Of a stretch of 64,000 bases of DNA, positions 40,531 through 51,750 are shown one piece after another (position 1 is the stretch's first letter; every line of letters starts with the position of its first letter). A program made the translations under genes and the position numbers. This DNA is from Candidatus Multivoradales bacterium (GTDB lineage: Bacteria; Acidobacteriota; Thermoanaerobaculia; Multivoradales; JAHEKO01), in the NCBI GenBank assembly GCA_965223155.1, contig CBDCVR010000013.1:256001-320000 (forward strand), read 5' to 3'. Under the pieces are notes generated by a model that was not told the origin of the DNA, did no database searches, and saw only the letters and a program-made list of their open reading frames with translations.

Positions 40531-41154
40531 GTGGCGAAGAAGCTGTACTTCAAGATCGGCGAAGCGTGCAAGCGGCTGGACATCCAGCCCTATGTGCTGC
40601 GCTATTGGGAGACCGAGTTCAGTGCCCTGAGCCCGGATAAGAGCAAGTCGGGCCAGCGGGTCTACTCCGAGGCGGATTTGCGCGTCATCGCCCGCATCAA
40701 GGAGCTCCTCTACGACGAGGGCTACACCATTGCGGGCGCGAAAAAGAAGCTCGAGAAGGAAGACCTGAGCGACCTGCCTCCGGTGGGTGCCAAGGCCGCC
40801 GCCCCCCCCAAGGCGGACACAGAGGACGTGGACGAGCTGGCTTCCGAGGAAGAGGACGGCGCCGCAGCCGACGCCAGGGCCTCCAGCGATGCGAACGACG
40901 AGGCCAAGGCGGCAGCCGAGCCCGAGCCAGCGAAGCCCGGAACCAAAGCTGCCGCCAAGCGGCCCGCGCCGGCCACGACGTCGAGCTCCAAGCCCGCCAA
41001 GAAGAAGACTCCCCCTAAAGCCCCGAAGAAGGCTCCGAAGAAAGCTGCGAAGAAGGCCTCGCCCAAGCCCAGCGCCTCTGAAGCCAAGCTCCGCCGGGGC
41101 GTGCGCGAAGCGCTCAAAGAAGCCCAGGCGCTCCTGGATTCCCTGTCGGACTGA
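40531..41154 (+). CDS. MerR-family regulator with Lys/Ala/Pro-rich linker
   Basis: KLYFKIGE...PYVLRYWETEF...LLYDEGYTIAGAKK. Confidence 0.9.
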   Translation: MAKKLYFKIGEACKRLDIQPYVLRYWETEFSALSPDKSKSGQRVYSEADLRVIARIKELLYDEGYTIAGAKKKLEKEDLSDLPPVGAKAAAPPKADTEDVDELASEEEDGAAADARASSDANDEAKAAAEPEPAKPGTKAAAKRPAPATTSSSKPAKKKTPPKAPKKAPKKAAKKASPKPSASEAKLRRGVREALKEAQALLDSLSD

Positions 41155-41204
41155 TATGGAACTTGTGGACATCCAGGCCCAGATACGTGCTAGCTTTCTT
41201 CACT

Positions 41205-41293
41205 GACCGATCCTCCGTTGTATGCGGCTCTGCCGCGGTTCTCCGTTTGAAAGACCCACGGTAACCCGCGGACCTACAACCGGTGGATCGGTC
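41205..41293. ncRNA. candidate structured RNA (rod-like hairpin)
   Basis: GACCGATCC/GGATCGGTC, CCGTTGTA/TACAACCGG, CCGCGG/CCGCGG, CCGT/ACGG nested stems; extended -10-like TGCTAGCTT just upstream. Confidence 0.4.
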
Positions 41294-41479
41294 GTTCCAT
41301 ACTGTCTAGCCGGGCCGCTCTGGCCAGGCTCACCCGTCGAACGAACGGGTCCCCGTTGCGAGGGCCCTCGCCCTGCCGGGCCAGGTCGACCGGCTGATTC
41401 GAGCGAAGCGAACAGCACGCGCGGGAACGCCTTCCGGCTCGACAGGTCCCGGCGCCGTTGGGTAAAGTAGCCGACCGGT

Positions 41480-41556
41480 CGGGACGTGGCGCAGTCTGGT
41501 AGCGTACCTGAATGGGGTTCAGGGGGTCGCGAGTTCAAATCTCGCCGTCCCGACCA
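41480..41556 (+). tRNA. tRNA-Pro(GGG)
   Basis: CGGGACG/CGTCCCG acceptor stem, CCTGA-ATGGGGT-TCAGG anticodon arm, GTTCAA, encoded CCA. Confidence 0.97.
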
Positions 41557-41619
41557 TAACTTCCCTGGCTTCAATAACTTGCAGTGGCCCTAGAATGGGC
41601 CAGATGCGGCCCTTCGATA

Positions 41620-41639
41620 TGGGGCACTGGGTGGGGCAC
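41620..41639. repeat. direct repeat TGGGGCAC x2 (arm-site-like)
   Basis: 41620-41627 and 41632-41639, about 65 bp after the tRNA 3' end. Confidence 0.5.
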
Positions 41640-41949
41640 AAAGCGCCCAGTTTCCGCCCGGTTTACTAGGTATTATCGAGCCGATGGCCCGAGTAGTTCG
41701 AAGCGCAGCGGCTGGACGGGCCGAAGAGTCACGGTGCGCGTTGACCACCTGACCGTTGTTCGCGCTGCCACTCCGTCGTCTACCCGCAGCGGCATAGCAG
41801 CCAGACACGTGAGCCAAGAACCCGCAGATGACGAAACCCCACGAGAGGTAGGTGCCAGATGAGATGAGTCGGTCGGTCTCCAGCTGGGACACTGTGCCAG
41901 TTGGAGATAACCAAGGAATCGGCATCAGAGCCGAGAAAGGAGACCGACC

Positions 41950-42963
41950 ATGGAGTATGTTGGCATTGATGTTCACTCGAAGTACAGCGAGGTTTGCGGG
42001 ATATCGGAAGAGGGGGAAGTGACGCTTCGCCGGCGGATTCCGACTACGGAGACAGCCTTGCGCCGGTTCTTCGGTTGTCGTGAGCAGTCGCAGGTGACGC
42101 TCGAAAGCGGCCCGGTGACTCCTTGGGTGTACCGGTTGCTGTGTGAGCTGGGACACGAGGTGACGGTAGTCAACCCGCGGCGGGTGCGGCTGATCGCGGA
42201 GTCGACATTGAAGACCGACGGAATCGACGCCGAGGTGTTGGCTCGATTGAGCCGGTTGGATCTCGACCTCCTGCGTCCCGTGTACCAGCGTACGCGTGAG
42301 GCCCAGGAGCTTCGGGCCAGGCTTCGCGTACGTACGAGCCTGGTCAAAGCCAGGACATCGTTGATCAACGCGGTGCGTGGAACGTTGCGAGCTCAAGGGT
42401 ACCGAGTGCCATCGTGCCCGGCCAAGAGCTTCGTCGTGCGCTACGCATCGATGGGTCTCGACAGTTCTCTTGCGGAAACGATCGATCCTCTGGTGACGAC
42501 GATCGGCGAGTTGACGGATCGGATCAACCGGCTCGAGAAGGAGCTCGTAGCCGAGTCGAGCTCAAACGAGCTGTTGGTGCGGCTTCAGACGGTCCCTGGG
42601 GTGGGCCCCTTGGTGAGCTTGGCCTTCCTGGGTTGGATGGATCGCCCGGATCGGTTCAGAAAGAGTCGAGACGTGGGTGCGTGTTTGGGCTTGAGACCGT
42701 CGCTTCGAAGCTCAGGAGGACACGAGATCCGAGGCCGGATCACACGGGAGGGCGACGCCGAGATGCGAAGGCTTCTGGTTCAAGCGGCTCATGCGGCGTT
42801 GAACTGTCGCAAAGAGTCGTCGCTCAAGAACTGGGCTGAGAGCTTGGTCGAGAGGCTCGGCAAGGGCAAGGCCGTCGTGGCCCTAGCGAGGAAGATCGCA
42901 GTGTTGCTCCATCGGCTATGGGTAACGGGCGATACTTTCCGGGCGTTCCCCCAGGCGGTGTAG
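41950..42963 (+). CDS. IS110-family DEDD transposase/recombinase
   Basis: GIDVHS, LESG, KTDGIDA (DEDD), VPGVG, GLRP...SSGG Ser motif, ALARK. Confidence 0.96.
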   Translation: MEYVGIDVHSKYSEVCGISEEGEVTLRRRIPTTETALRRFFGCREQSQVTLESGPVTPWVYRLLCELGHEVTVVNPRRVRLIAESTLKTDGIDAEVLARLSRLDLDLLRPVYQRTREAQELRARLRVRTSLVKARTSLINAVRGTLRAQGYRVPSCPAKSFVVRYASMGLDSSLAETIDPLVTTIGELTDRINRLEKELVAESSSNELLVRLQTVPGVGPLVSLAFLGWMDRPDRFRKSRDVGACLGLRPSLRSSGGHEIRGRITREGDAEMRRLLVQAAHAALNCRKESSLKNWAESLVERLGKGKAVVALARKIAVLLHRLWVTGDTFRAFPQAV

Positions 42964-43009
42964 AGCCTAGAGAACATCAGGTCGCACCAGAAAGGAAGGA
43001 CGGATTGAA

Positions 43010-43148
43010 AGTTTCGATGACTCCGAGAAAAGGGTTGGAGGCCAGGACTCCGCGTGCCAGATGGGAGCATCGAATCCTCAACGGACGAAAAACTCACCAT
43101 GCACCGGTCCAAGAAAGGACCCGCCAGAGTGCGAATAGAAGCTCGTCC
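43010..43148 (+). ncRNA. predicted bridge/seek RNA of IS variant 1
   Basis: Two stem-internal loop-hairpin units; guides GAAAAGGGTT (43027-36), GTGCCAG (43054-60), ATAGAAG (43135-41); boundaries approximate. Confidence 0.75.
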
Positions 43149-43286
43149 TGAGGCTCCATCCGAGACCCGAAACACATGGGGAGACGATGACAGACACCTT
43201 GACCGAAACGACCGACTCATAGAAGCCTTTCCGCGAAAGCTAGTCAGTAGTTGACGTTTTCGAAAAGGGTGGTGCCTATTCTTGGG

Positions 43287-43326
43287 GGCACAGTGTCCCA
43301 GCTGGAGACCGACCGACCCATCTCAT
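43287..43326 (-). mobile_element. truncated left end of another IS110 copy
   Basis: 40 nt with 1 mismatch to the IS left end; outer flank TAGGTTCCAG resembles the variant 1 target. Confidence 0.85.
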
Positions 43327-43352
43327 CTGGAACCTATCGATGGGAGGTCAGG

Positions 43353-43658
43353 TCAGGAGGAACCCATAATAGAGCTAAGTACCTCTAAGAGAAGGCACGA
43401 AAAGGCTGCCATCAGGAAGATAGACAGTGCGCAGTACAAGACCGACAGGACTGCTAACCAAGGGTCGCCCAACCGAAGTGGTCTGAAGCTGTACATGTAG
43501 CGCCAGAACCGGACGGTCTGCTGGGACGTCATAAAGTTTGAAGGCTTGCCCGCTCGTTGCCACTCATCTTCGTGATATTTCCGAAGTCGCCGCAACAAGG
43601 CCACCCCCACAAACATGGCTGGAAGCATCGCCGCGAAGAAGGCTATCTCAAGGCTCAT
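43353..43658 (-). CDS. small two-TM membrane protein (UspB-like layout)
   Basis: TM-LRRLRKYHEDEW...FWRYMY...-TM; lower GC. Confidence 0.65.
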   Translation of the reverse strand: MSLEIAFFAAMLPAMFVGVALLRRLRKYHEDEWQRAGKPSNFMTSQQTVRFWRYMYSFRPLRLGDPWLAVLSVLYCALSIFLMAAFSCLLLEVLSSIMGSS

Positions 43659-43685
43659 AGAGGTGGCCCCCCTTGTTCGGACAGT

Positions 43686-45056
43686 GAGTTATCGTCAAAT
43701 GTTGTGTACGGGTGACTCAGGCGGCGATCCGGTTCTTGGGTTCTCCATCAACGAATTTGACACCTCGGACAACGTCGGCGATTCGCTTGTAGCCCTGTAG
43801 CCGCCGCCATCGTTTCTCGGCACTCTGGCTCAGCTTGAAGACCATCGAGAGCATGGTCTCGCGGGAGAGACAACCACGGGTCTTGGCCGTTCGAAGGCGT
43901 ACGGTGGCAAAGGTCGACTCGATCGGGTTCGTGGTCCTGAGATGGACCCAATGCTCGGCCGGGAAATCGTAGAAGGTCAGCAGGACCTTGCGATCCTTGG
44001 CCAGGCAACGCGTCGCCTTCGGGTACTTGGCCCCGTAGGTCGACAGGAAGGCATCGAAGGCTCGCTCGGCAGCCTCGCGCGTTTCGGCCATCCAGACCTG
44101 GTGCAGCGCCTGCTTGGCCTTTGGCTGGACGGCCTTGGGCATCTTGTTCAAGACGTTGCCGGTCTTGTGGACCCAGCAACGCTGGGTCTTGGTGTTGCTC
44201 CAGACCTGAGCCAGGGCCTTCCAGAAGCCCAGAGCGCCGTCACCGGTCGCCAGCTTCGGCTCGATGGCAAGCCCTCGCGCTTCGAGTCCACGCAAGAGCT
44301 CGAGCCAGGAAGCCTCGCTCTCGCGGTAGCCGTCTTCGACGGCGATGAGCTCCTTGGTGCCGTCCTCGGTGGCGCCAATCAGTACCAGCAGGCACAGCTT
44401 CGCGTCGTCCAGACGAGCCTTGGTATGGATCCCATCCGCCCACACGTAGACGTAGCGCTTGGAGGACAAGTCCCGGGTGCGCCAGTCGGTGTACTCCTTG
44501 GCCCAGACTTTCTTCAGACGGCTGATCGTCGCGGCTGACAACCCCGGGGCGTCGGGGCCTACCAGAGCTTCCAGGGCATCGGAGAAATCTCCGGTGGAGA
44601 TGCCGCGCAGATAGAGCCACGGCAGCAGCTCCTCGACGCTCTTGGCCCGTCTGAGATACGGAGGCGCGATCTTCGAGCGAAAGACCAACTCACCTTCACG
44701 ATCCCGAACCCGAGGCACCTTCACCGGCACACCTCCGATTCCCGTCTGGATCTCACGCTCGCGCAGGTAGCCGTTGCGAACCATGCGGCGCCGGCCATCT
44801 TCCGTTTGCTCGCCTCGGTACTCGGCCAGGAAGCTCTCGACCTCGGCTTCGATCGCTTCGCGAAGCAACTCGCGTGAGCCGCGGCGAAGCACTTCGGTCA
44901 AGGCATCTCTCGAACTCTCTGATCGGTCAATCGAAACTACGTTACTCTTGCTCAAGGCGTATCCTCCTTCTTTGAGGGTTTGAATCCGATTTGGAAAACC
45001 GGACTCAGGATACGCCGCCTTCATCTCAACTCATACACAACTTTCGACCATAGCTC
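43686..45056 (-). mobile_element. IS256-family element
   Basis: 28-bp imperfect terminal IRs (22/28), 9-bp TSD TCGGACAGT (43677-85, 45057-65). Confidence 0.95.
43717..44955 (-). CDS. IS256-family transposase
   Basis: RNGY, VPRVRDR, YVWADG, GDGALGF, QRCWVHK, RTTNPIES; TTG start with GGAGG RBS. Confidence 0.95.
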   Translation of the reverse strand: MSKSNVVSIDRSESSRDALTEVLRRGSRELLREAIEAEVESFLAEYRGEQTEDGRRRMVRNGYLREREIQTGIGGVPVKVPRVRDREGELVFRSKIAPPYLRRAKSVEELLPWLYLRGISTGDFSDALEALVGPDAPGLSAATISRLKKVWAKEYTDWRTRDLSSKRYVYVWADGIHTKARLDDAKLCLLVLIGATEDGTKELIAVEDGYRESEASWLELLRGLEARGLAIEPKLATGDGALGFWKALAQVWSNTKTQRCWVHKTGNVLNKMPKAVQPKAKQALHQVWMAETREAAERAFDAFLSTYGAKYPKATRCLAKDRKVLLTFYDFPAEHWVHLRTTNPIESTFATVRLRTAKTRGCLSRETMLSMVFKLSQSAEKRWRRLQGYKRIADVVRGVKFVDGEPKNRIAA

Positions 45057-45088
45057 TCGGACAGTTCGGCGGCAGTGAATTCGGAGTG

Positions 45089-45169
45089 AATTCGGTGACA
45101 GGATACATATTTCGAGTGTCCCTCTGCGGCCGGATTCTTCCCTTGAAATTGGTATCCTGTCACCGAATT
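45089..45169. repeat. palindromic repeat family A, copy 1 (intact, 81 bp)
   Basis: Perfect 18-bp IR AATTCGGTGACAGGATAC / GTATCCTGTCACCGAATT around a conserved 45-bp spacer. Confidence 0.92.
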
Positions 45170-45179
45170 TCCCCCCAGC

Positions 45180-45524
45180 GTGGAATCCGATGGATTGCAC
45201 ACTCTCGTAGTGCCGTCGCGGGAGCGGAGCAGCGGTCAGCCTCAGGTCGACTTCTCAGTCGAGTATCCGCCCTGGGACGGGAGCCTTGACGACTCCAGAC
45301 TAGCGCCGCCCCCGGGCGTAAGCGGTGGCGGGATCTGGACGGTCCCTATATTCAAAGCGAACCGCCTGTGGGCTCCAGAACGCGCGGAGTTGGTCGGAGT
45401 GGCGAGGAGCTGGTCGCGGCAGAACAAGGAGCTCGTCTGCGTGCGTATAGAGGAGTGGCTCGCGATCCTTCGGCAAGACGTCGGCGATCTAGCGCCCGCT
45501 ATTGACGCGGCGGCTGGCCAGTAG
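45180..45524 (+). pseudogene. C-terminal fragment of a trypsin-like serine protease
   Basis: PGVSGGGIW...ELVGVA...CVRIEEWL resembles the catalytic-Ser half; begins right after repeat A. Confidence 0.5.
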
Positions 45525-45529
45525 CTATC

Positions 45530-46249
45530 TCAGTCCGCGCAGTTGTTGTACCGGAGCGTGTTCGCCTTCCACTCGTCGCGAGCGCTGCACCCGGCAACGT
45601 ACTCCTCAAGAAGGACGCGACACCGCGCTGGCGAGGGCGCGTGAAGGCCTGCCAACGTTGCGATCTCCCCGATCATCTCGTCCTGCGAATGGACCCAGTC
45701 AACTGCTAGAACGTCGGCTTTGGTCTCGACGTCAACGGCTGCTGGCAGGTCGGACCGGAGCGATGAATCGACAACCAAGAGAGCTCCGCGCGGGCGCTTT
45801 TGGCTGAGCTTGTAGGAGTTGATCAACGCACTGCCCATAACCGGGAAGATCGTCATCAGGCCTTCGCCCATCCTGATCACACCATCCGTCGACTTCGCCA
45901 TGACCGAATCGGGGTAGCAGCCCTGTACATCCGCGAAGCCACCCGTCGACAGAGCTGCTCTCGCAACGCCTCCACCGGCGAGAACGTGCCGAAGTACGCC
46001 GATCGCAACGGCGACGGGTTTCCCCAGCGCCTGTTCGCCAAAGCTCGGAACGACTACGAAGCCATCGCCAAGCTGGTGGGCAAACAGGCGATGCGGCTCC
46101 TCCGCGAGGCACATCGCGCCAATGCGGTGAATCGCCTCCATTAGTCGACCAAGGCGCACTAGAGCCTCAGCCTGGTGCATGGCGTACGTATCAGAGAACC
46201 CCTCGAGATCGAGATAGAGGGACCACTTGTCTTCGCCAGTCCGCCACAT
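45530..46249 (-). CDS. divergent class III nucleotide cyclase-like protein
   Basis: LYLDLEGFS, QLGDGFVVV, RAALSTG, VMGSALINSYKL; ATG 46249 (the longer ORF runs into the IS). Confidence 0.6.
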   Translation of the reverse strand: MWRTGEDKWSLYLDLEGFSDTYAMHQAEALVRLGRLMEAIHRIGAMCLAEEPHRLFAHQLGDGFVVVPSFGEQALGKPVAVAIGVLRHVLAGGGVARAALSTGGFADVQGCYPDSVMAKSTDGVIRMGEGLMTIFPVMGSALINSYKLSQKRPRGALLVVDSSLRSDLPAAVDVETKADVLAVDWVHSQDEMIGEIATLAGLHAPSPARCRVLLEEYVAGCSARDEWKANTLRYNNCAD

Positions 46250-46373
46250 TGAGGTCAACGGTTGCTGTGGAATTCGGTGACAGATGAGATGAGTCGGTCG
46301 GTCTCCAGCTGGGACACTGTGCCAGTTGGAGATAACCAAGAATCGGCATCAGAGCCGAGAAAGGAGACCGACC

Positions 46374-47387
46374 ATGGAGTATCTTGGCATCGATGTTCAC
46401 TCGAAGTACAGCGAGGTGTGTGGCGTATCAGAAGACGGTGAGGTGACGGTTCGCCGGCGGGTTCCGACGACCGAGACGGGCCTGCGAAGGTTCTTCGCCA
46501 ATCGGGAACGCTCGCAGGTGACGCTCGAGAGCGGTCCGGTCACACCCTGGGTCTATCGACTGCTGTCTGAGCTCGGCCATGAGGTGATGGTGGTCAATCC
46601 ACGCCGGGTACGTCTGATCGCGGAATCGACCCTGAAGACGGACGGAATCGACGCCGAGATCCTGGCTCGTTTGAGCCGGTTGGATCTGGGTTTGCTTCGA
46701 CCAGTCTACCAGCGCACAGGTGAGGCCCAAGAGCTTCGGACGCGTCTTCGGGTCCGAACGAGTCTGGTGAAGACCAGGACCTCGCTGATCAACTCCGTAC
46801 GCGGAACGCTGCGGGCACAGGGCTACCGAGTGCCCTCATGTCCGGCGAAGAGCTTCGTGGCTCGGTACGCGTCGATGTCGGTCGAAGCCGGCCTGTTGGG
46901 AGCGCTCGAACCTCTGGTAACGACAATCGGCGAGCTGACCGATCGGATCCACCATCTCGAAGACGACCTCATCTCCGAGTCGAGATCAAACGAGCTGGTC
47001 CGTCGGCTGCAGACGGTTCCTGGTGTGGGGCCTCTGGTGAGCCTTGCGTTCGTCGGCTGGATGGATCGTCCGGATCGGTTCGAGAAAAGCCGCGACGTCG
47101 GAGCGTGTCTGGGCTTGAGACCGTCGCTTCGCAGCTCAGGAGGGCATGAGGTCAGGGGCCGGATCACTCGCGAGGGCGACTCGGAGATGCGCAGACTCTT
47201 GGTGCAGGCAGCTCATGCGGCGTTGAACTGTCGCAAAGAGTCGTCACTCAAGAGATGGGCTGAGGGCCTGGTCGAGAGGCTGGGTAAGGGCAAGGCCGTG
47301 GTCGCGCTAGCTAGGAAGATCGCGGTGTTGCTCCACAGGCTGTGGGTGACAGGTGAGAGCTTCCGAGCCTTTCCCAAGGCAGCGTAG
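46374..47387 (+). CDS. IS110-family DEDD transposase/recombinase
   Basis: Same motifs as variant 1; about 86% aa identity by manual count; AGGAG RBS. Confidence 0.96.
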   Translation: MEYLGIDVHSKYSEVCGVSEDGEVTVRRRVPTTETGLRRFFANRERSQVTLESGPVTPWVYRLLSELGHEVMVVNPRRVRLIAESTLKTDGIDAEILARLSRLDLGLLRPVYQRTGEAQELRTRLRVRTSLVKTRTSLINSVRGTLRAQGYRVPSCPAKSFVARYASMSVEAGLLGALEPLVTTIGELTDRIHHLEDDLISESRSNELVRRLQTVPGVGPLVSLAFVGWMDRPDRFEKSRDVGACLGLRPSLRSSGGHEVRGRITREGDSEMRRLLVQAAHAALNCRKESSLKRWAEGLVERLGKGKAVVALARKIAVLLHRLWVTGESFRAFPKAA

Positions 47388-47429
47388 AAGAGATAACTAG
47401 ACGACCAACAAGCAAGGACGGATTGAGAG

Positions 47430-47566
47430 GTTCGATGACTCCGAAAGTATCCTTGGTGGCCCCGACACCGTGTGACAGATGGGAGCATCGATTCCTAAAC
47501 GGACGCAAAACTCACCATGCACCGGTTCAAAGAAGAACCCTACAGAGTGCGAATAGAAGCTCGTCC
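47430..47566 (+). ncRNA. predicted bridge/seek RNA of IS variant 2
   Basis: Guides GTATCCT (47447-53), GTGACAG (47472-78), ATAGAAG (47553-59); compensatory stem changes vs variant 1. Confidence 0.8.
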
Positions 47567-47665
47567 CAAGCCTCGATCCAAACCTAAGGAAAACTACAAA
47601 AAGAAGAAACGAAACTCTTGACGCCAACCGACCGACTCATAGAAGGATACATATTTCCTGACGGT

Positions 47666-47746
47666 TCCGGTGACAGGATACATATTTCGAGGGTCCCTCT
47701 GCGGCCGGATTCTTCCCTTGAAATAGGTATCCTGTCACCGGATTTC
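47666..47746. repeat. palindromic repeat family A, copy 2 (preceded by an extra IS-occupied arm)
   Basis: 16-bp IR TCCGGTGACAGGATAC / GTATCCTGTCACCGGA, same spacer as copy 1. Confidence 0.92.
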
Positions 47747-47771
47747 CAGTGGAATTCCGGCTCGGCTCGCG

Positions 47772-49064
47772 TCACCTGATACCGGGGATTCGTACCGCGG
47801 GGATGATCTCGTCGAGCAGGATCTGCTCCGGCATCCAGAAAAAGTCCGGGTCGTTGTACCCGCCGCACAGGATCACGACGAGGAGGTCGAGTGCGGGAAT
47901 GACGTAGATGCGCTGGCCACCATTCCCGGCGGCGGTATGGACCTCCAGCTCGGCGGAGTCCGTGCCGTAAAGATCGTGCCACCAGAGGTATCCGTAGCCG
48001 AATTCGCCGATCTCTTTCTCGCGTCCGGTCACGGCAAGACGCCGCCGCGTCGATTCGCTCACCCAGGATTCGGTCAGGATCTGCTCGCCGTTCCAGCGCC
48101 CGCCGCTGAGATACAGCGAGCCGAACTTTGCGAAGTCTCGCGCTGTCATCCAGACGTTTCCGCCGGGGTCCGAGTTTGTCGCCCAGGGCCGATCGCTCTC
48201 CCACGCGAGCTCGGGCACGGAGTCCCAGTTCGAATAGCTGGCCCATTCGACGTCTCGTATTCCCAGCGGTTCAAAGAGCAGTTCTCGGGCGTAGGCGCCG
48301 AAGGCCTTGTTCGTAGCACGTGCCACCGCGATACCCAGCATCGCGGGCAACCCGGAGTTGTAGTACCACTGCGTACCGGGAGTCGAGGCCATCGAGCGGC
48401 TGAACACGTAGGCTGCCGGGTCGTCGTGCGCAGTCGTTCGCTCTGCGTCGTTCGAAGGGTCGGTGTACGGCACCTCGAACTCGTTCCAGCGGAGCCCGGC
48501 ACTCATCATCAACGCGTGGCGGACGGTGATTGCACGTTTCTCCGGCGTAGCCAGCGAATCTAGTTCCGGGAAGTAGTCGAGCAGCGGGGTGTCGAGCGAC
48601 GGGATCGCTTGGCGATCGAGCGCGATTCCAACGACTGCCGAAGTGATGCTCTTCCCCACGGAGCGCGAGTCGTGCAGCGTGGTCCGGTCGAACTCGACGG
48701 TCACGGTCTCAAAACGCTCTCCATTCCAGCGCTTGTCTTCTCCCGTGAAATACGATTCGTACACGAGTTGGCCGCTCTTGGCGATCAGCACCGCATGGAC
48801 GTTCGGGTACCGCTCGCCCTGGCGCAGCGCTGCGGTCATGGAGTCGAGGCGTGAAACGTCGAGTCCCGCGTCGGACGCGGCACCAACGCCCCATCCATCG
48901 TCGGTCCTGGCAGGCGTCCAGGCGGCCTCGGGCGACGCCGCGGTCGGAGTGGGTGCCGAATTCTCGGTCGTTCCACAGCCCTGGGATGCCAGCAGACAGA
49001 GTGCAACCGCAGTTACCGTCCAGTGTCGGGGTGTCACCGTCGCAAGACGTCTTGCAGCTCTCAT
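47772..49064 (-). CDS. serine hydrolase, beta-lactamase/AmpC-like family lipoprotein
   Basis: Lipobox SQGC, SVGK (SxxK), YYNS, YGYLWW, AAGNGGQ. Confidence 0.9.
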   Translation of the reverse strand: MRAARRLATVTPRHWTVTAVALCLLASQGCGTTENSAPTPTAASPEAAWTPARTDDGWGVGAASDAGLDVSRLDSMTAALRQGERYPNVHAVLIAKSGQLVYESYFTGEDKRWNGERFETVTVEFDRTTLHDSRSVGKSITSAVVGIALDRQAIPSLDTPLLDYFPELDSLATPEKRAITVRHALMMSAGLRWNEFEVPYTDPSNDAERTTAHDDPAAYVFSRSMASTPGTQWYYNSGLPAMLGIAVARATNKAFGAYARELLFEPLGIRDVEWASYSNWDSVPELAWESDRPWATNSDPGGNVWMTARDFAKFGSLYLSGGRWNGEQILTESWVSESTRRRLAVTGREKEIGEFGYGYLWWHDLYGTDSAELEVHTAAGNGGQRIYVIPALDLLVVILCGGYNDPDFFWMPEQILLDEIIPAVRIPGIR

Positions 49065-50387: not shown

Positions 50388-51750
50388 CTTCTATGAGTCG
50401 GTCGGTTGGCGTCAAGAGTTTCGTTTCTTCTTTTTGTAGTTTTCCTTAGGTTTTGGATCGAGGCTTGGGACGAGCTTCTATTCGCACTCTGTAGGGTTCT
50501 TCTTTGAACCGGTGCATGGTGAGTTTTGCGTCCGTTTAGGAATCGATGCTCCCATCTGTCACACGGTGTCGGGGCCACCAAGGATACTTTCGGAGTCATC
50601 GAACCTCTCAATCCGTCCTTGCTTGTTGGTCGTCTAGTTATCTCTTCTACGCTGCCTTGGGAAAGGCTCGGAAGCTCTCACCTGTCACCCACAGCCTGTG
50701 GAGCAACACCGCGATCTTCCTAGCTAGCGCGACCACGGCCTTGCCCTTACCCAGCCTCTCGACCAGGCCCTCAGCCCATCTCTTGAGTGACGACTCTTTG
50801 CGACAGTTCAACGCCGCATGAGCTGCCTGCACCAAGAGTCTGCGCATCTCCGAGTCGCCCTCGCGAGTGATCCGGCCCCTGACCTCATGCCCTCCTGAGC
50901 TGCGAAGCGACGGTCTCAAGCCCAGACACGCTCCGACGTCGCGGCTTTTCTCGAACCGATCCGGACGATCCATCCAGCCGACGAACGCAAGGCTCACCAG
51001 AGGCCCCACACCAGGAACCGTCTGCAGCCGACGGACCAGCTCGTTTGATCTCGACTCGGAGATGAGGTCGTCTTCGAGATGGTGGATCCGATCGGTCAGC
51101 TCGCCGATTGTCGTTACCAGAGGTTCGAGCGCTCCCAACAGGCCGGCTTCGACCGACATCGACGCGTACCGAGCCACGAAGCTCTTCGCCGGACATGAGG
51201 GCACTCGGTAGCCCTGTGCCCGCAGCGTTCCGCGTACGGAGTTGATCAGCGAGGTCCTGGTCTTCACCAGACTCGTTCGGACCCGAAGACGCGTCCGAAG
51301 CTCTTGGGCCTCACCTGTGCGCTGGTAGACTGGTCGAAGCAAACCCAGATCCAACCGGCTCAAACGAGCCAGGATCTCGGCGTCGATTCCGTCCGTCTTC
51401 AGGGTCGATTCCGCGATCAGACGTACCCGGCGTGGATTGACCACCATCACCTCATGGCCGAGCTCAGACAGCAGTCGATAGACCCAGGGTGTGACCGGAC
51501 CGCTCTCGAGCGTCACCTGCGAGCGTTCCCGATTGGCGAAGAACCTTCGCAGGCCCGTCTCGGTCGTCGGAACCCGCCGGCGAACCGTCACCTCACCGTC
51601 TTCTGATACGCCACACACCTCGCTGTACTTCGAGTGAACATCGATGCCAAGATACTCCATGGTCGGTCTCCTTTCTCGGCTCTGATGCCGATTCTTGGTT
51701 ATCTCCAACTGGCACAGTGTCCCAGCTGGAGACCGACCGACTCATCTCAT
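50388..51750 (-). mobile_element. IS110-family (IS1111 group) element, variant 2, copy b
   Basis: Near-identical reverse complement of 46284-47645 (one extra base in an A run); same target on the opposite strand. Confidence 0.95.
50647..51660 (-). CDS. IS110-family DEDD transposase/recombinase
   Basis: Protein identical to 46374-47387. Confidence 0.96.
   Translation of the reverse strand: MEYLGIDVHSKYSEVCGVSEDGEVTVRRRVPTTETGLRRFFANRERSQVTLESGPVTPWVYRLLSELGHEVMVVNPRRVRLIAESTLKTDGIDAEILARLSRLDLGLLRPVYQRTGEAQELRTRLRVRTSLVKTRTSLINSVRGTLRAQGYRVPSCPAKSFVARYASMSVEAGLLGALEPLVTTIGELTDRIHHLEDDLISESRSNELVRRLQTVPGVGPLVSLAFVGWMDRPDRFEKSRDVGACLGLRPSLRSSGGHEVRGRITREGDSEMRRLLVQAAHAALNCRKESSLKRWAEGLVERLGKGKAVVALARKIAVLLHRLWVTGESFRAFPKAA

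Follow-up and report, generated by a model that had tools for sequence, protein, structure and literature searches.

The DNA analyzed here, hereafter called the window, is a 64,000-nucleotide (nt) stretch of a Candidatus Multivoradales bacterium genome (contig CBDCVR010000013.1, positions 256,001 to 320,000; C13:256001-320000 of a 15-contig, 4.0-Mb assembly). It contains two sister insertion sequences (IS), v1 and v2, each with a transposase gene followed by a 3′ region that specifies a predicted RNA of the bridge RNA or seekRNA kind. Our subject is the relationship between the guide sequences of the two RNAs and the different sites at which the elements are inserted. The principal features, with lengths in base pairs (bp) or amino acids (aa), are as follows.

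41859..43225, + strand: element v1, 1367 bp, IS110 family, IS1111 type (sequence reading and BLAST)
41866..41875, + strand: left subterminal inverted repeat of v1, GAGTCGGTCG, with its partner CGACCGACTC at 43209-43218
41950..42963, + strand: v1 transposase, 337 aa, DEDD RuvC-like and Tnp domains (PF01548, PF02371, NF033542)
43001..43162, + strand: predicted bridge/seek RNA of v1, consisting of an outer stem and target-binding and donor-binding stem-loops (consensus fold, model R1 and covariation)
46284..47645, + strand: element v2, the sister IS, 1362 bp (sequence reading and BLAST)
46374..47387, + strand: v2 transposase, 337 aa (PF01548, PF02371, NF033542)
47419..47580, + strand: predicted bridge/seek RNA of v2 (single-sequence and consensus fold)

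The organization of the two elements is the same. A short left end of 91 nt, in which GAAAGGAG precedes the reading frame, is combined with a long non-coding region downstream of the gene (262 nt in v1 and 258 nt in v2), an arrangement that is characteristic of the IS1111 group. The subterminal inverted repeat, GAGTCGGTCG(GT)/(AC)CGACCGACTC, is 10 bp long in v1 and 12 bp in v2, within the 7-17 bp expected for IS1111 elements; it begins 7 nt inside the left end and stops 7 nt inside the right end. At the DNA level v1 and v2 are about 81% identical overall and 76-83% identical in the coding region. The initial annotation of this DNA had described two paralogues with common ends and about 86% protein identity, and our comparison agreed: 290 of 336 aligned residues are identical (86%), the left ends differ by no substitution and by one 1-nt indel, and the final 17 nt of the right ends are the same.

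Both proteins contain the RuvC-like DEDD domain (PF01548; E = 3e-24 for v1 and 9e-25 for v2) and the C-terminal Tnp domain (PF02371; E = 1e-20 and 5e-21) that define IS110 transposases, and both scored well above the cut-off of 140 bits for NF033542, 'IS110 family RNA-guided transposase' (244.8 and 241.3 bits). The DEDD residues, numbered as read from the alignment of the two proteins, are D7, E52, D90 and D93. By sequence, the ISCro4 and IS621 transposases are the closest proteins of known structure, the similarity to IS621 being confined to the C-terminal ~140 residues (E = 2.5e-10). The length of the proteins falls in the 330-350 aa range of the IS1111 group, and both carry GLRPSLRSSG, which fits the GL-P----S(t)G motif of that group. 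Insertion is site specific, with a short shared core and with neither terminal inverted repeats nor target duplication, as in other IS110 elements. In a comparison made without ISfinder, v1 and v2 appear to be unnamed new members of the IS1111 group. A search for related loci among genome contigs with the v1 protein returned only five distant loci (25-54% identity) that were left out of the analysis. In the closest relative of v1, L007 (G002:C32; 92% aa identity), the sequence GIDVH found elsewhere reads GIEVH, such that E replaces the first catalytic D.

When the 3′ region of v2 was folded, a stem formed by UCGAUGACUCC and GGAGCAUCGA surrounded an internal loop with AAGUAUCCUU on its 5′ strand, GUGACAG on its 3′ strand and a small hairpin between the two; a second stem-loop of like design followed this target loop. 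A consensus fold of six relatives (v1, v2, two same-genus genomes and two same-family genomes) contained the same two stem-loops inside an outer stem, for a total of 47 pairs. The 43 pairs that remained after removal of the four inside the guide loops were used for a covariance model, R1, which gave 83 matches in 95 related loci. Within the 80 metagenome loci, for which the gene had been set on the + strand, every match was on the + strand and downstream of the gene. In an alignment of 74 distinct relatives (A4), 89.9% of the cells were paired, versus 23-45% with slid partners, 36 of the 43 pairs changed on both sides, and none of 500 shuffles attained the observed values. Compensatory scaffold changes between v1 and v2, which the initial annotation had pointed out, were also found in alignment A3, where an A-U pair is replaced by U-A (46:56) and a C-G pair by U-A (118:127). 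What is conserved is therefore a structured RNA with two stem-flanked internal loops, as in bridge RNAs and seekRNAs. Differences between v1 and v2 clustered in the guide loops, where they affected 8 of 19 columns as compared to 20 of 145 columns elsewhere (Fisher p = 0.0055).

The first of the two loops is the candidate target-binding loop. Its guide strands and the half-targets that flank each element are listed below.

41851..41858, + strand: left half-target of v1 (GGTGCC + AG), which is the left arm of a palindromic host repeat and corresponds to the 3′ guide GUGCCAG
43025..43035, + strand: v1 5′ guide, GAGAAAAGGGU, complementary to the top strand of AC + CCTTTTC, the right target
43053..43063, + strand: v1 3′ guide, CGUGCCAGAUG, whose GUGCC + AG has the top-strand sequence of the left flank
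43226..43276, + strand: remainder of the palindromic host repeat split by v1 (CCTTTCCGCGAAAGCTAGTCAGTAGTTGACG...GGGTGGTGCC)
46276..46283, + strand: left half-target of v2 (GGTGAC + AG)
47443..47453, + strand: v2 5′ guide, GAAAGUAUCCU, complementary to AG + GATAC
47471..47481, + strand: v2 3′ guide, UGUGACAGAUG, which equals the left flank GTGAC + AG
47646..47657, + strand: right half-target of v2 (GATACATATTTC)

It had been proposed from the window that GTGCCAG (43054-43060) and GTGACAG (47473-47479) track the left flanks of v1 and v2, and that GAAAAGGGTT (43027-43036) and AAGTATCCTT (47445-47454) track the right flanks CCTTT and GATAC, respectively. All of the quoted sequences were present at the coordinates given for them, and both correspondences held. 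The left-target guides differ by a single base (GTGCC in v1 and GTGAC in v2), and most of the retargeting between the sisters sits in the right-target guide.

We tabulated the flanks of all copies in the genome, a check that had been suggested along with the guide proposal. BLAST identified 14 intact copies and one interrupted copy of v2, together with two copies of v1 that have identical interiors, the second being at C15:372322, and one 40-nt left-end relic. The left flank of v2 was GGTGACAG in all 15 copies, and the right flank was GATAC in 14 and GATGC in one. Both copies of v1 lay between GGT(G/T)CCAG and CCTTT, in an arm of a palindromic repeat other than that used by v2. The window copy of v1 is preceded by GGTGCCAG and ends in AG followed by CCTTTCCGC (right flank CCTTTCC), whereas the C15 copy is preceded by GGTTCCAG and ends in AC followed by CCTTTTCGC; the latter matches the reverse complement of its 5′ guide over the 10 nt AACCCTTTTC. 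None of the 17 copies was inserted at the target of the other sister, and none was at a site unrelated to its own loop.

Additional features of the window that belong to this family or to its targets are the following.

43287..43334, - strand: insertion relic of the v1/v2 type: the outermost 40 nt of a left end, with one mismatch, directly after GGTTCCAG (BLAST)
45094..45165, no strand assigned: empty ~75-nt palindromic host repeat with the v2 target GGTGACAGGATAC in both arms; a further copy is at 47668-47740
50389..51750, - strand (C13:306389-307750): third IS of the v1/v2 family, another copy of v2, again at the v2 target motif (BLAST)

Like the two v1 copies, the relic lies at GGT(G/T)CCAG. 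It breaks off beside a right arm, itself intact, of the palindromic repeat in which v1 is inserted.

The targets of both elements are dispersed host repeats. Uninterrupted, the 13-mer GGTGACAGGATAC occurs 17 times in the genome, about seven times within the ~75-nt palindromic repeat and otherwise in shorter contexts. Two occupied v2 sites, C7:10445 and C11:2930, share their surroundings with the empty sites C14:366085 and C14:574419, which read GGTGACAGGATAC, and hence constitute exact empty/filled pairs. In these pairs, v2 separates GGTGAC-AG from GATAC; both junctions carry AG, and nothing else is duplicated. The empty site reads GGTGACAGGATAC and the filled site reads GGTGACAG-[IS]-GATAC, and the AG is ambiguous between element and target. 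Empty v1-type sites were found at C4:9445, C14:172055 and C14:185511 and in the opposite arms of the same repeats, with the sequence GGT(T/G)CCA(C/T)CC(C/T)TTT... These are the arms of a ~60-nt palindromic repeat with the conserved center CTA(G/A)TCAGTAGTTGACG. As v1 sites lie in the ~60-nt repeat and v2 sites in a different motif and repeat, the sisters use two host repeat families, as had been thought from the window.

Insertions of v2 on the small contigs C2, C7 and C11 occupy sites that lack the element on the large contigs C14 and C15. That the sites are filled on small contigs and empty on large ones implies that the sampled population is polymorphic for these insertions, which suggests ongoing transposition. 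Logan contigs of four sequencing runs covering 41500-48000 were fragmented and contained several v2 flank contexts; neither a circle junction nor an empty allele could be read in them.

The correspondence between guides and flanks extended to relatives of v1 and v2. Guides were read for each R1 match from the alignment and element ends were placed by the conserved end motifs. Loci were dropped if the flank was not on the contig or if the ends did not fit the motifs. For the left side, five bases of the 3′ guide were set against the five that precede the core: 285 of 295 positions matched and 49 of 59 distinct pairs were perfect, and none of 10000 permutations of the guides attained this value (mean 249.6). 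Guides other than GTGCC, among them GTGAC, GTTCC, GGGTC, GAACC, GCGGC, GTCCC, TTGTC and GAGCG, were perfect in 11 of 14 cases and had one mismatch in the other three. For the right side, the reverse complement of six bases of the 5′ guide was scored against the six that adjoin the element on that side. Here 284 of 378 positions matched, as compared to a permuted mean of 141.6 that again never reached the observed value (0/10000); 16 pairs were perfect, 38 of the 63 matched in at least five of six positions, and several matched in only one to three. The two strands of the target loop therefore match, and covary with, both strands of the insertion site. A group of metagenome and G023 loci (L011, L055, L079, L080, L084, L087 and L107) carries the guide GCACTA beside GCTTTAGG-type flanks (GTTTTAGG in the case of L087), and a sister element, L078, whose guide is GCTTTA, perfectly matches the flank type found beside these GCACTA-guide elements.

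The second loop corresponds to the ends of the element itself. The features of v1 that bear on this are listed here.

43089..43099, + strand: donor loop 5′ strand, AAAACUCACCA, which covaries with left-end positions 4-7
43134..43142, + strand: donor loop 3′ strand, AAUAGAAGC, which equals the right end ...ATAGAAG
43199..43204, + strand: conserved TTGACC, 21 nt before the right end, a candidate -35 box (end comparison)

Among the relatives, the 3′ strand of the donor loop equals the right end in three covarying states (ATAGAAG, ATAAAAG and ATGGAAG). Covariation of the 5′ strand with left-end positions 4-7 was seen as TGAG, TGGG, TGGA and TTGG; 118 of 168 positions matched, as compared to a permuted mean of 100.4, and none of 10000 permutations attained the observed number. 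Both strands of the donor loop thus match and covary with the ends, the match of the 5′ strand being short (~4 nt). The U directly 3′ of the 5′ guide can pair with the last A of the right end and may therefore be a base of the handshake kind. We also considered the AUG after the 3′ guide as a left-end guide and rejected it, as relatives with CUG or AGG at this position keep an ATGA left end. In a metagenome subgroup (L099, L100, L101, L105, L109 and L111/L112) the 3′ target guide has CG as its last bases and the donor 3′ strand is ATAGACGG; the two loops covary at the core in this subgroup, yet the left junction reads TG. Most of the listed right ends contain (C)TTGAC at a comparable position, and a few contain ATTGAC or TTTGAC. 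On the model of published IS110 elements, this TTGAC could be the -35 box of a promoter that is completed across the junction of a circular form.

Comparison of guides with junctions revealed an asymmetry at the core. The 5′ guide of v1 reads AC, whereas the right junction of the window copy is AG and that of the C15 copy is AC. Empty v1-type arms in the genome carry AC or, in one case, AT. Fifteen distinct elements have a 5′ guide that reads AC; in all of them the left junction was AG, and the right junction was AC in eight, AT in two and AG in five. From these counts, the base after the shared A is that of the donor on the left and that of the target on the right, which explains the 'imperfect core G' that had been noted for the v1 match. 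The mismatch itself is real, in that the guide reads AC and the window junction AG, but it is probably not a defect, as empty v1-type arms carry what the 5′ guide reads.

Replication of a mismatched two-base core should give both arrangements. The left junction is always G, however, which points to a different geometry. One proposal is that only one base, the A, is shared at the crossover, with strand exchange unlike that at the identical 2-nt core of IS621, and that each RNA acts largely in cis. The second part derives from the 0 of 17 cross-insertions, seen despite near-identical ends and donor loops and despite published trans activity; in nature, the RNA may serve mainly the circle that expresses it. 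Taken jointly, we regard these two suggestions as tentative and on balance somewhat unlikely.

These results can be combined in the following model. Each element encodes a DEDD/Tnp recombinase and, in its long 3′ non-coding region, a predicted ~160-nt structured RNA of the bridge RNA/seekRNA kind. The 5′ strand of the target loop would pair with the top strand of the right half-site, to which it is complementary, whereas the 3′ strand, which has the sequence of the top strand of the left half-site, would pair with the bottom strand. The donor loop would read the element's own right end with its 3′ strand and its left end with its 5′ strand. The element would leave as a circle, and the recombinase-RNA complex would pair the circle junction with a matching genomic site, such that recombination occurs at the shared A(G) without target duplication. 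The sisters differ in the target loop, whereas their ends are common and their donor loops nearly identical; v2 thus inserts into GGTGAC-AG-GATAC motifs and v1 into the GGT(G/T)CC-A(C/G)-CCTTT arms of the other palindromic repeat. The anatomy of the elements, the structure of the RNA as indicated by covariation, and the correspondence of guides with flanks and of guides with ends are observed in the genome and its relatives. The circular intermediate, the junction promoter and the chemistry are modeled on the published mechanism and would apply here by analogy. We are highly confident in this explanation as a whole, in which v1 and v2 belong to the IS1111 branch within the IS110 family and are mobile now or were so recently.

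Several observations weigh against this interpretation. Single-sequence folds of the whole 3′ regions were no more stable than shuffles (z = -0.11 and -0.76), and the target and donor loops, although visible in the v2 single-sequence fold, were absent from the v1 minimum-energy fold. Alignment A4 was fitted to the model and therefore favors structure, a bias that the slid controls carry equally. A search of 41000-48500 with Rfam gave no bridge RNA family at E <= 1; the only matches were a transfer RNA (tRNA) and a weak chance microRNA match on the palindromic repeat. A promoter scan of v1, in which the circle junction was not part of the scanned sequence, found no sigma-70-like promoter inside the element. 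Transcription of the RNA and its binding by the recombinase are likewise taken from the published mechanism and would hold here by analogy. With regard to targeting, the site preference of v1 comes from few events (two copies and one relic), and the window copy mismatches its own 5′ guide at 2 of 10 positions. The tests in relatives also involved selection, as the 83 matches and three genome entries yielded 59 distinct scored pairs for the left side and 63 for the right side. Among several metagenome elements whose guide is GCACTA, those beside GCTTTA matched at four of six positions and others with this guide at only two or three; half-matched or off-target insertion, or use of a relative's RNA, are possible causes. 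Finally, the three complete copies in G027 matched their right flanks only in part (four of six positions for the scored copy, L026).

An explanation of a different kind is that the transposases, which differ at 14% of their residues, select the sites through protein-DNA contacts, and that the guide matches are incidental or are footprints of insertion. With only two variants, protein and loop differences are confounded within the genome, and the trees allow a single clade of GTGAC-type loops in which the target could follow the protein lineage. Nevertheless, many close proteins differ in their 5′ guides and the right flanks follow the guides, as in L044 and L010 or L038 and L041, and permuting guides among loci destroyed the match (0/10000). 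Nor would a copied footprint give matches on two strands of one covarying loop, one in sense and the other in antisense. Reprogramming of IS1111 and IS110 elements, as published, shows that the RNA sets the target (PMC11187229, PMC11208160). Targeting by the protein is thus very improbable in our view. We give equally little credence to the idea that v1 is a decaying, non-autonomous element whose copies were placed by the v2 machinery or by homologous recombination, which would make its flanks uninformative. Such a history would fit the low number of v1 copies (two and one relic, versus 15 for v2), and the near-identical donor parts mean that the v2 complex could in principle move v1. Both v1 copies, however, retain the intact 337-aa frame and identical interiors, and their sites match the v1 loop rather than that of v2; neither is in the GGTGACAG/GATAC context expected from the v2 RNA.

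GTGCC is by far the commonest left guide (45 of the 59 pairs) and is also present in the more distant relatives G027 and G029, so the GTGAC guide is probably the derived one. A v2-like loop (GAGAGUAACCU and GUGACAG) also occurs elsewhere, in L008, which is from a genome of the same genus, and in L036, from a metagenome contig. L008 is inserted between GGTGACAG and GCTACTC, and L036 has the same left flank on a contig that ends before the right end. As both carry a near-identical loop at a related site, the v2-type change of target may predate this genome. Thus, the earlier statement that the guide had been rewritten stands insofar as guides track flanks, with the qualification that the left guide differs by one base only and that the v2-type loop also occurs in L008 and L036. 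Close sisters with different 5′ guides (L044 versus L010, L038 versus L041) indicate that retargeting is frequent in the clade.

The v1/v2 difference could also have arisen by exchange of the whole target loop through recombination or gene conversion rather than by stepwise mutation. Despite their v2-like loop, L008 and L036 resemble v1 (82-84%) more than v2 (74-79%) in coding DNA, which hints at such an exchange, and forcing v2, L008 and L036 into one clade costs 11.5 log-likelihood units. Left ends without substitution combined with coding DNA of 76-83% identity would fit conversion between co-resident copies as well. On the other hand, such a clade was not rejected by the approximately unbiased (AU) test (p = 0.075), a long v2 branch can account for the pattern of identities, and with left ends 81-97% conserved across relatives, zero substitutions in 91 nt is weak evidence. 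Protein and DNA trees gave no settled branching for the clade of v1, v2, L007, L008/L036 and L026. We regard module exchange as an unlikely but still credible history.

Other features accompany the two elements. The left ends contain a 10-bp hairpin, CUCCAGCUGG...CCAGUUGGAG, at 41880-41910 in v1 and 46305-46334 in v2. Its 3′ arm includes GTGCCAG, the left-target heptamer of v1, which is kept even in v2. This hairpin could be a candidate for translational control or an insulator. An IS256-like element at 43687-45057 (- strand) encodes a 435-aa Mutator-family transposase (PF00872, E = 2e-65) and is flanked by the 9-bp direct repeat TCGGACAGT. One copy of v2, on contig C7, is interrupted by a 435-aa frame of the same IS256-like kind with the same element ends, in this case flanked by the 7-bp direct repeat GTCACTC. 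A tRNA gene (60.8 bits) is located at 41480-41553, 300 nt upstream of v1. Contig C4:1-637 is an 88-91% identical copy of the tRNA region that then diverges, and an empty v1-type target is present on this contig at C4:9445; this tRNA-adjacent region may be a strain-variable island.

The finding that sister elements carry different guides for different host repeats is correct, but it is not a new kind of system or mechanism, because RNA-guided targeting by IS1111 and IS110 elements and re-direction between sisters were published in 2024. The locus is a compact natural control in which the ends, scaffold and donor loop are the same and chiefly about eight guide bases differ. What it adds is a co-resident pair that does not cross-insert although its donor parts are nearly identical, together with a collection of natural guide/target pairs and the asymmetry seen at the junctions. 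The 59 left and 63 right pairs, imperfect ones included, come from an IS1111-type scaffold that is less studied than IS621, and could inform the mismatch rules and core requirements of bridge-type genome editors.

The closest known systems are the IS1111 elements with seekRNAs (ISEc11, ISXne4, ISKpn4 and ISPa11) described by Siddiquee et al. (2024, PMC11187229). In that account, the seekRNA lies downstream of the gene, and the top-strand match is 5′ of the bottom-strand match, the two overlapping at the insertion point. v1 and v2 resemble those elements in the downstream non-coding region, the subterminal repeats, the 330-350-aa transposase with GL-P----SG, the order of the guides and the overlap at the insertion point. 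Natural re-direction was reported there for the sisters ISEc11 and ISXne4, which are 72% identical. Unlike that pair, v1 and v2 are closer (86%), have common ends and a near-identical donor loop, reside in the same genome and differ by one base only in the left-target guide, as judged from the same account. According to Durrant et al. (2024, PMC11208160), 93% of IS1111 elements are predicted to have a right-end bridge RNA, circle formation reconstitutes a promoter at the junction and the RNA can work in trans; loop-target covariation across thousands of orthologues was also already described in that report. Recognition of both strands and the handshake bases were described for IS621 by Hiraizumi et al. 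(2024, PMC11208158). As in the IS621 system presented in these two papers, v1 and v2 combine target and donor loops in one RNA and read both strands around a short core, and they share with it covariation of loops and DNA across orthologues and the same two recombinase domains (PMC11208160). In contrast to IS621 as presented by Durrant et al., the RNA follows the gene instead of lying in the left end, the guide order is reversed, the subterminal repeats are long and the donor core is AG rather than CT (PMC11208160). A further difference from the IS621 described in those reports is that, in the v1/v2 clade, the right junction has the base of the target at the second position of the core. ISPpu9 and ISPpu10 also insert with site and orientation specificity into dispersed palindromic repeats or transposon ends without target duplication, and IS4321/IS5075 are grouped with such repeat-targeting IS110 elements by the title of their report alone. 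The host repeats and guides of ISPpu9, ISPpu10 and IS4321/IS5075 differ from those of v1 and v2, and the likeness of these elements to our pair is one of description only.

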